Positions 3,859 through 4,345 of a stretch of 64,000 bases of DNA are shown piece by piece. Below the pieces are notes generated by a model, which worked only from the letters and a program-made list of their open reading frames with translations, did no database searches and had not been told where the DNA came from. The DNA is taken from the NCBI GenBank assembly GCA_017864995.1, contig GCA_017864995.1_4097.1; one strand, 5' to 3'. Made by a program: the position numbers and the translations under genes. This stretch comes from a phage. Positions within the stretch are counted from its first letter, which is position 1, and each line of letters opens with the position of its first letter.

Positions 3859-4023
3859 ATGACGCATGAAGAATGGATGAATGACATTAATTTTAGATAT
3901 TCGGGTATCGGTAGTTGGAGAAAATATCATTGGGAAATCATATCAGACCCAGCAGAATACGATAAACTTATGAATGATGGAGTGTATCCGTGGTTCTTTA
4001 TTGAAATAATGGTACGATTATGA
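3859..4023 (+). CDS. mini-protein MTHEEWM family, copy 1 (54 aa)
   Basis: three tandem near-identical starts ATGAC(G/A)CATGAAGA(A/G)TGGATGAA, each overlapping the previous stop as ATGA. Confidence 0.5.
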   Translation: MTHEEWMNDINFRYSGIGSWRKYHWEIISDPAEYDKLMNDGVYPWFFIEIMVRL

Positions 4024-4184
4024 CACATGAAGAATGGATGAATGACATTAATTTTAGATATTCGGGTATCGGTAAATGGCTAAAGTATCATTGGGAATTC
4101 ATTTCAGAGCCACATCTGTATGATAAACTTATCAACGATCCAGCATATGAAATGTACTTAATTGAACTACTGGTACGAACATGA
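4020..4184 (+). CDS. mini-protein MTHEEWM family, copy 2 (54 aa)
   Basis: as copy 1; about 75% identical to copy 1 by eye. Confidence 0.5.
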   Translation: MTHEEWMNDINFRYSGIGKWLKYHWEFISEPHLYDKLINDPAYEMYLIELLVRT

Positions 4185-4345
4185 CACATGAAGAGTGGAT
4201 GAAACGCCAAAAATTAAAGTGGAATCCTTATTATCTACCATTAGATTCTAGAATGTGGGATGTTATACGTGTTAAGTGTATGTACAAAGCATATTTAAGT
4301 ACTGAACTCGACGAAGAAGTACTGATGCATATCGTGCACCGATGA
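4181..4345 (+). CDS. mini-protein MTHEEWM family, copy 3 (54 aa)
   Basis: same N-terminus MTHEEWM, diverged body. Confidence 0.45.
   Translation: MTHEEWMKRQKLKWNPYYLPLDSRMWDVIRVKCMYKAYLSTELDEEVLMHIVHR

Follow-up and report, generated by a model that had tools for sequence, protein, structure and literature searches.

Positions 2173 to 4345 of a 64,000-nucleotide stretch of phage DNA (NCBI GenBank assembly GCA_017864995.1, contig GCA_017864995.1_4097.1; the whole stretch is referred to below as the window) contain five paralogous mini-genes on the + strand, three of which (copies 1, 2, and 3) stand in tandem at 3859–4345. Taken together, our results tilt toward the view that these genes form an early-expressed family of small soluble proteins with a four-helix fold, which evolves by birth and death and whose members would bind host or defense factors. 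An initial annotation of the window had described the triplet of 54-codon open reading frames (ORFs) with shared starts and ATGA overlaps and a fourth copy, starting MTHKEWLDEL, at 2355–2525. The coordinates of the triplet are as described there, and the kinship of the fourth copy is borne out by its match to the profile that the triplet also matches. Sequence comparison indicates that the family greatly exceeds, in both size and divergence, what that annotation could show.

The region 2300–4500 of the window is 99.1% identical to Escherichia phage fEgEco12 and matched 47 phage records, mostly ~350-kb jumbo phages of E. coli and Salmonella belonging to the genus Asteriusvirus. As judged from its sequence, the window is Asteriusvirus DNA, that is, it derives from a jumbo coliphage of the 121Q/PBECO4 type.

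Copies 1, 2, and 3 begin with the DNA sequence ATGAC(G/A)CATGAAGA(A/G)TGGATGAA, which encodes MTHEEWM, and both junctions between them are 4-nt ATGA overlaps of stop and start codons. The TGA stop of the 2173–2358 gene overlaps the start of the 2355 ORF in the same manner. The identity of copies 1 and 2, earlier put at about 75%, amounts to 80% for DNA and 71% for protein. Tandem Repeats Finder reported a period of 161 bp with 2.1 copies and 81% matches, and a direct-repeat search found a 161-nt direct repeat at 77%. Copy 3 is diverged, as had been noticed before, sharing ~18 to 20% protein identity with copies 1 and 2. The ORFs starting at 2355, 3859, 4020, and 4181 match positions 1 to 55 of the 56-position PHROG profile phrog_10970. 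Since all four match this independent profile end to end, their similarity reflects homology rather than chance. The fifth member, at 2173–2358, was first picked up by an iterative hidden Markov model search using sequences of relatives, and it matches positions 1 to 59 of the 61-position profile phrog_31562. When the phrog_10970-type and phrog_31562-type groups were compared with hhalign, they aligned over their full length with 96% probability (E = 3e-9), which suggests that the two profiles, listed separately, are linked as one superfamily. The window proteins thus have full-length matches in PHROG, and neither entry gives a function. No family members beyond these five were found in the 64-kb window. 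Two ORFs considered as a second small family (2898–3095 and 6772–6987) were rejected, as BLASTP revealed no similarity.

The sequence data show the mini-genes to be protein-coding and under purifying selection. The initial annotation had proposed a dN/dS analysis and had pointed out that frames not conserved in relatives would indicate non-coding repeats. The reading frames are intact across 11 genomes, and Nei-Gojobori dN/dS among orthologues is 0.15 for the group of copy 1 (A1, 9 alleles), 0.28 for that of copy 2 (A2), and 0.20 for that of copy 3 (B, 8 alleles), which supports coding. The conserved start varies synonymously, for instance in the A4 orthologue; therefore, constraint acts on the protein. 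It could be argued that the repeats are non-coding (regulatory repeats, iterons, or remnants) and that the ORFs are accidental, because they are very short and have no known protein function or domain. We give this possibility hardly any credence: apart from the intact frames and the low dN/dS values, distant relatives at ~30% identity retain equal length and start, profile E-values go down to 1e-29, AlphaFold2 derives a confident fold from the alignment, and ORFs on the opposite strand have no homologues. On such sequence evidence, a non-coding origin appears to be effectively refuted already. Group B is present in all 11 genomes examined, the 2355 gene (“C1”) has orthologues in 35 phage records, and the 2173 member is conserved in BF17, PBECO4, JP4, G17, and ph0011. 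Coordinates of the genes and of the features discussed below are collected in Table 1.

Table 1. Mini-genes, adjacent elements, composition of the slot 3′ of tRNA-Ser, and arrays in metagenomic contigs.
Feature	Sequence or genomes	Position	Strand	Remarks
Divergent fifth member	Window	2173–2358	+	61 aa, MQPKTFDEW...TYFSIAV; phrog_31562 E = 6e-42
Member “C1”	Window	2355–2525	+	56 aa, MTHKEWLDEL...; phrog_10970 E = 5e-29
Sigma-70–like promoter	Window	3622–3651	+	10/12, TG extended −10; consensus scan
tRNA-Ser(UGA)	Window	3662–3751	+	ARAGORN; Rfam tRNA model 61.7 bits; upstream of triplet
Weak tRNA-like element, UCU anticodon arm	Window	3756–3834	+	Rfam 32.6 bits (gathering score 29); no ARAGORN call
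Copy 1, orthologue group A1	Window	3859–4023	+	54 codons; phrog_10970 E = 3e-26; orthologue dN/dS 0.15
Copy 2, orthologue group A2	Window	4020–4184	+	54 codons; ATGA start over copy 1 stop; phrog_10970 E = 1e-24; dN/dS 0.28
Copy 3, orthologue group B	Window	4181–4345	+	54 codons; ATGA start over copy 2 stop; phrog_10970 E = 2e-26; dN/dS 0.20
Sigma-70 promoter, near-consensus	Window	4355–4382	+	11/12; downstream edge of triplet unit
Slot 3′ of tRNA-Ser	Window, BF17, 121Q, G17, JNE01, ph0011			A1+A2+B
Slot 3′ of tRNA-Ser	PBECO4, UE-S1, A4			A1+B (A2 absent)
Slot 3′ of tRNA-Ser	JP4, ELP-22			A2+B
Slot 3′ of tRNA-Ser	Metagenomic contig L085			A2, new type, then B
Array	L003, metagenome, 16-kb contig			12 family members detected
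Array	L005, metagenome	6001–9417		21 consecutive tiny ORFs (50–66 aa), 3.4 kb; at least 15 family members
Array	L084, metagenome, Logan ERR4503900_124, 78-kb contig	4716–9428		26 consecutive tiny ORFs (50–66 aa), 4.7 kb; at least 23 members

The initial annotation had attributed copies 1 and 2 to a recent tandem duplication, suggestive of selection on dosage or diversification. A recent duplication selected for higher dosage would agree with the 161-bp tandem repeat and its 81% matches and with the first 55 nt, in which copies 1 and 2 differ at one position. We nevertheless consider it very improbable. In nucleotides 58 to 162, A1 and A2 are 73% identical (maximum 76%), compared to 92 to 94% within each type across phages, which places the duplication before the divergence of the sampled genomes. 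In the same part of the gene, dN between copies 1 and 2 is 0.32 and dS is 0.57, higher than the mean orthologue dS of 0.13 to 0.40, and the test for recent tandem duplicates, in which the copies should be closer to each other than to their orthologues, came out negative in the 3′ part. Moreover, phages with A1 only and phages with A2 only both occur, and copy 3 and the 2355 copy are no more than 20 to 30% identical in protein. The duplication is thus not recent, and an effect of dosage is disfavored by the age and the reciprocal absence of A1 and A2, which form old orthologue groups; diversification is plausible.

The 5′ part of these genes differs from the rest. Over the first 57 nt, A1 and A2 are 92.5% identical, no further apart than orthologues within one type, and the conserved 5′ segment contains one synonymous change where ~4 are expected. 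Because near-identity is limited to the first ~55 nt, the A1/A2 gene pair is a mosaic, a pattern that is only suggestive of gene conversion or of a shared crossover segment.

Copy-number variation in related phages, which the initial annotation had recommended looking for, was found in the slot 3′ of tRNA-Ser, where A1+A2+B, A1+B, or A2+B are present (Table 1). As some relatives are A1-only and others A2-only, this variation suggests that diverged copies have been gained and lost, and not that one copy was amplified. In the window, the upstream slot contains two members; other isolates have up to three extra types there, and JNE01 has six quite different members. The total for the locus ranges from 5 to 9 members in isolates. 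Differences between the paralogue sets consist of whole 161-bp genes that are present or absent, of one in-frame stop, and of different types at one position. These comparisons of sequence show a paralogue set that occupies a hypervariable slot among phage tRNA genes and differs from phage to phage, and the history of the locus, read in this way, is one of birth-and-death evolution.

The in-frame stop concerns 121Q genes 115 and 116 (L002 2138–2311 and 2315–2476), which correspond to one member of the JNE01-1920 type split by a TGA at a position where JNE01 has Trp. This TGA could mark a pseudogene, a sequencing error, or readthrough. The assignment of 121Q genes 115 to 117 to a broken version of the PBECO4 “MAMMKKRYDQ” type was rejected by alignment and translation. 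121Q gene 117 (53 aa, MKYEHLKYYADRINYYPFYIR...) is a separate mini-protein type that by eye resembles the one encoded at 7559–7720 of L005; the latter type sits within big arrays, yet the family profile misses it.

The 161-bp units are gained and lost whole, with frames kept, and each of them opens with the same 20 to 55 nt. In-register homologous recombination between units, made possible by their conserved 5′ ends and fixed length, would add or remove whole genes in this manner, and homing endonuclease genes that adjoin the arrays in several relatives (HNH and T5orf172) could promote it. A different history can be built from the same elements. A1 and A2 may have been divergent alleles in different phages, brought into tandem when co-infecting genomes recombined unequally at the 5′ box that both types share, in which case the single-copy state would be ancestral and not the result of a deletion. 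The existence of both A1-only and A2-only genomes agrees with this scenario, as does the fact that the 5′ 57 nt do not tell the types apart, which is expected of a crossover site; the HNH and T5orf172 genes next to the arrays of several relatives would promote such exchange as well. Both types are, however, present in 6 of the 11 genomes examined. We regard it as a possible but rather unlikely origin of the tandem; it alters the history of the locus, not the identity of the genes.

Much larger sets were detected in metagenomic contigs (Table 1). The runs of 26 ORFs in L084 and 21 ORFs in L005 are uninterrupted, compared to two genes in the equivalent slot of the window. Junctions in such arrays are mostly −4 to +8 nt, and a gene of the homing-endonuclease type lies directly 3′ of each run (T5orf172/MUG113 in L084 and NUMOD4-HNH in L005). 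The genes flanking the L005 array are ~72% identical in DNA to the same region of Asteriusvirus, and the flanks of the L084 array have a very similar order of gene sizes plus a DUF1353 gene, as in phage A4. Because flanking genes are shared, we take both arrays to occupy the slot seen in Asteriusvirus, in the genomes of distant relatives that are uncultured.

The distribution of the family is narrow. Among 50,697 sequenced phages, it occurs in Asteriusvirus only (35 to 37 records). When 1.84 billion representative proteins were searched exhaustively with a profile, 22 relatives were returned. One of them, the 1052-aa P0031, was rejected as a eukaryotic PAH/Myb repeat protein whose score was raised by its repeats. 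The others are 43 to 64 aa long, and nearly all of the 18 distant representatives inspected have MTHxEW from residue 1. In IMG/VR, a locus search with the A1 query returned 121Q as the sole locus, and a scan for the exact motif returned 67 loci, with clustered matches in 121Q only (six matches, all inside 2 kb and none elsewhere in the 348-kb genome). Single matches in the remaining loci were rejected as unrelated proteins or chance, which leaves 121Q as the only carrier of the family in IMG/VR. By these searches, the family is known so far from jumbo coliphages of the genus Asteriusvirus and from uncultured relatives of these phages, and from no other source.

In BF17, 121Q (genes 118, 121, and 125 to 127), PBECO4, UE-S1, and other phages, the mini-genes carry the annotation “hypothetical protein.” The products of these 121Q genes (gp118, gp121, and gp125 to gp127) and phAPEC6 gp094c to gp101c are the same proteins or close orthologues (70 to 100% identity). 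One family member, P0012, is listed by NCBI under E. coli as a hypothetical protein (ABV23_RS01095). Its contig is 357,761 bp long, and it appears that the E. coli assembly in question includes the complete genome of a jumbo phage.

Proteins of the family are 50 to 64 residues long (6.7 to 7.5 kDa), with a pI of 4.7 to 7.9 and 13 to 21% aromatic residues. They have no conserved cysteines, and the longest apolar run is 5 residues. Such short apolar runs and the protein composition suggest soluble cytoplasmic proteins. AlphaFold2 modeling of the 2355 member (“C1”) with a 36-sequence alignment yielded a pLDDT of 87.4 and helices at residues 3 to 14, 23 to 30, 32 to 40, and 46 to 53; an earlier model based on 20 sequences had a pLDDT of 72.7. 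The four-helix fold is thus a confident prediction, and it has no match among known folds. Searches of Pfam, NCBIfam, PADLOC, and PDB sequences gave nothing meaningful, and the attempt to derive a function from homology was abandoned on their account. Nor was there sequence or fold similarity to any characterized member of the known anti-defense, defense, or toxin-antitoxin proteins.

The textbook motif for the N terminus of a helix combines an S/T-x-x-E capping box with a hydrophobic staple, in which the residue preceding the N-cap pairs with residue N4. The invariant M1-T2-x-x-E5-W6 of the mini-proteins fits this motif, since helix 1 begins at residue 3: Thr2 and Glu5 would form the capping box, and Met1 and Trp6 the hydrophobic staple. 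Such an N-cap role would account for the conserved N terminus and the near-identical DNA at gene starts with no need for a catalytic or signal function. His3 is exchanged for K, R, Y, or L in distant members and is therefore not essential to the fold. Unrelated small viral proteins (IMG/VR loci L018, L047, L049, and L056) likewise start with MTHEEW(L/I), which fits the motif being a general way of capping the N terminus of a helix and not a hallmark of this family alone.

We counted sigma-70 promoters close to the consensus (at least 11/12). There are 30 such promoters on the + strand of the window and none on the − strand, compared to ~3.2 per strand expected from Markov-1 simulated sequences. 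The 30 promoters span 2836–52083, and eight of them are 12/12. Because consensus promoters are so dense here and confined to a single strand, we infer early transcription by the host sigma-70 polymerase, and most of the window has the appearance of a single large early region read by that enzyme. RpoD-like promoters have been used to delimit a putative early region in a related jumbo phage, CBB (PMC5259590). The promoter preceding tRNA-Ser (Table 1) likely starts a transcription unit that comprises the tRNA and the mini-genes, and no + strand terminator was predicted between it and position 4345. The triplet would then be co-transcribed with tRNA-Ser as a tRNA-mRNA message, and its translation would be coupled via the ATGA overlaps.

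The role of the proteins is the weakest step of our explanation. Each paralogue would be a small binder of a host or defense protein, with the conserved core acting as a scaffold and the surface being variable. We chose this role because the features of the family match those by which host-takeover and counter-defense genes are known in other large phages and viruses. The products are small, soluble, and putatively early; their core is conserved while other positions vary; the slot is hypervariable; paralogues turn over rapidly; and relatives show large expansions. A repertoire of small binders of host or defense proteins is put forward as the most likely role, a tentative proposal to which we give less than an even chance. 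A more specific version appears unlikely to us. It holds that the MT-x-x-E-W proteins are a cassette-like repertoire of binders with a four-helix core and a hypervariable surface, the set being expanded, shuffled, and pruned by in-register recombination at the 5′ box and each paralogue neutralizing a different host defense or host factor. If true, phages would have their own equivalent of the multigene families known from large eukaryotic viruses, with a fold unseen in solved structures.

Several points weigh against the early-expressed family of binders as a whole. Transcriptomic data for the Asteriusvirus group were not found in the literature searched. The 5′ ends could be nearly identical owing to constraint and not to gene conversion. 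Values of dN/dS below 0.3 correspond to ordinary purifying selection on orthologues, with no obvious signal of an arms race. It may also be asked whether the mini-proteins are structural, membrane, or DNA-binding proteins, acting in virion decoration, lysis, superinfection exclusion, or as small transcription regulators, instead of binding host factors. We judge this improbable. The phAPEC6 orthologues gp094c to gp096c and gp099c to gp100c are absent from the 62-protein virion table of that phage (Table 1 in PMC7247149; gp101c was not searched), which is weak evidence because mass spectrometry detects proteins of 6 to 7 kDa poorly.

Known systems offer partial parallels for a family of small binders. 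The plastic periphery of the T4 superfamily has reportedly been described by Comeau et al. in 2007. The “hyperplastic” small early ORFs of T4-like phages resemble the mini-genes in being short, annotated without function, served by sigma-70 promoters, located near tRNA and homing endonuclease genes, and variably present between close relatives. They are, however, a mix of unrelated ORFs, whereas one homologous family stands in tandem here, with more than 20 copies in relatives, and T4 proteins have no sequence similarity to the mini-proteins. In African swine fever virus (MGF110/360/505) and in the “gene accordions” of poxviruses, gene arrays are linked to host-range and immune-evasion functions. 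As in the mini-gene locus, these are tandem diverged paralogues whose number varies between isolates by recombination. The viruses and proteins are unrelated to those studied here, and for the mini-proteins a role in host interaction is only inferred; in addition, poxvirus accordions are recent, near-identical amplifications, while the mini-gene copies are old and diverged. Anti-CRISPRs and T4 Dmd share with the mini-proteins the size range of 50 to 90 aa, early expression (presumed for the mini-proteins), an arrangement in clusters, and fast turnover. The mini-proteins are not homologous to any known member, and an Aca-type regulator was not noted nearby, although no dedicated search for one was made.

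The literature searched (on 121Q/PBECO4 paralogues, Asteriusvirus gene families, and transcriptomics) contained no description of the family, its arrays, or its copy-number variation. The genes themselves are already deposited and clustered in PHROG and hence are not new objects, and the family is of a familiar kind: large phages carry paralogous small early genes in their plastic regions. Three features appear to be undescribed in that literature, namely that the two PHROG families are linked, that A1 and A2 form orthologue groups with reciprocal losses, and that arrays in uncultured relatives exceed 20 genes. Some 80% of the genes of 121Q-type jumbo phages have no known function, and the family is a compact and tractable part of them, with a defined slot from which the entire array could be removed in one step, a clear pattern of gain and loss over ~36 sequenced isolates, and a confidently predicted fold without a known relative. 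If the proteins are binders of host or defense factors, the arrays would be a ready catalogue of small inhibitors and might help to explain differences in host range among therapeutic jumbo coliphages. If they have no measurable effect, the locus would present a clean case of mini-gene birth-and-death evolution missed by standard ORF cut-offs.

Other elements of the locus are RNA-like. In the weak tRNA-like element downstream of tRNA-Ser, the anticodon arm (3768–3788, UCU loop) is 90% identical to the tRNA-Ser arm at 3687–3707, and the D-arm looks truncated by eye. Relatives have tRNA-Arg(tct) or tRNA-Leu(taa) annotated at this position. The element may be a decaying tRNA gene. A second structured element, of the size of a tRNA, lies on the + strand at 2754–2824, flanked by the 2537–2748 ORF and by the 12/12 promoter at 2836. 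A stem of 8 bp (GCGGCAUG/CAUGCCGC) closes the element, which also contains a hairpin resembling a T-arm (GUCGA-UUCGAUU-UCGAC), followed by UCAAAAUUU; the minimum free energy is −26.5 kcal/mol (z −2.3). Its interpretation as a degenerate tRNA-Gly was rejected, as there was no Rfam hit and no homology to the 121Q tRNA-Gly located after a c0-type gene. The element could be a terminator or a tRNA remnant. Further downstream, two adjacent tRNA-Thr(UGU) genes (7581–7654 and 7661–7734, + strand) represent a tandem duplication of a tRNA gene within the plastic region. Relatives differ in the tRNA genes that they carry there (Gly, Leu, Arg, Ile, and additional ones for Met or Ser).
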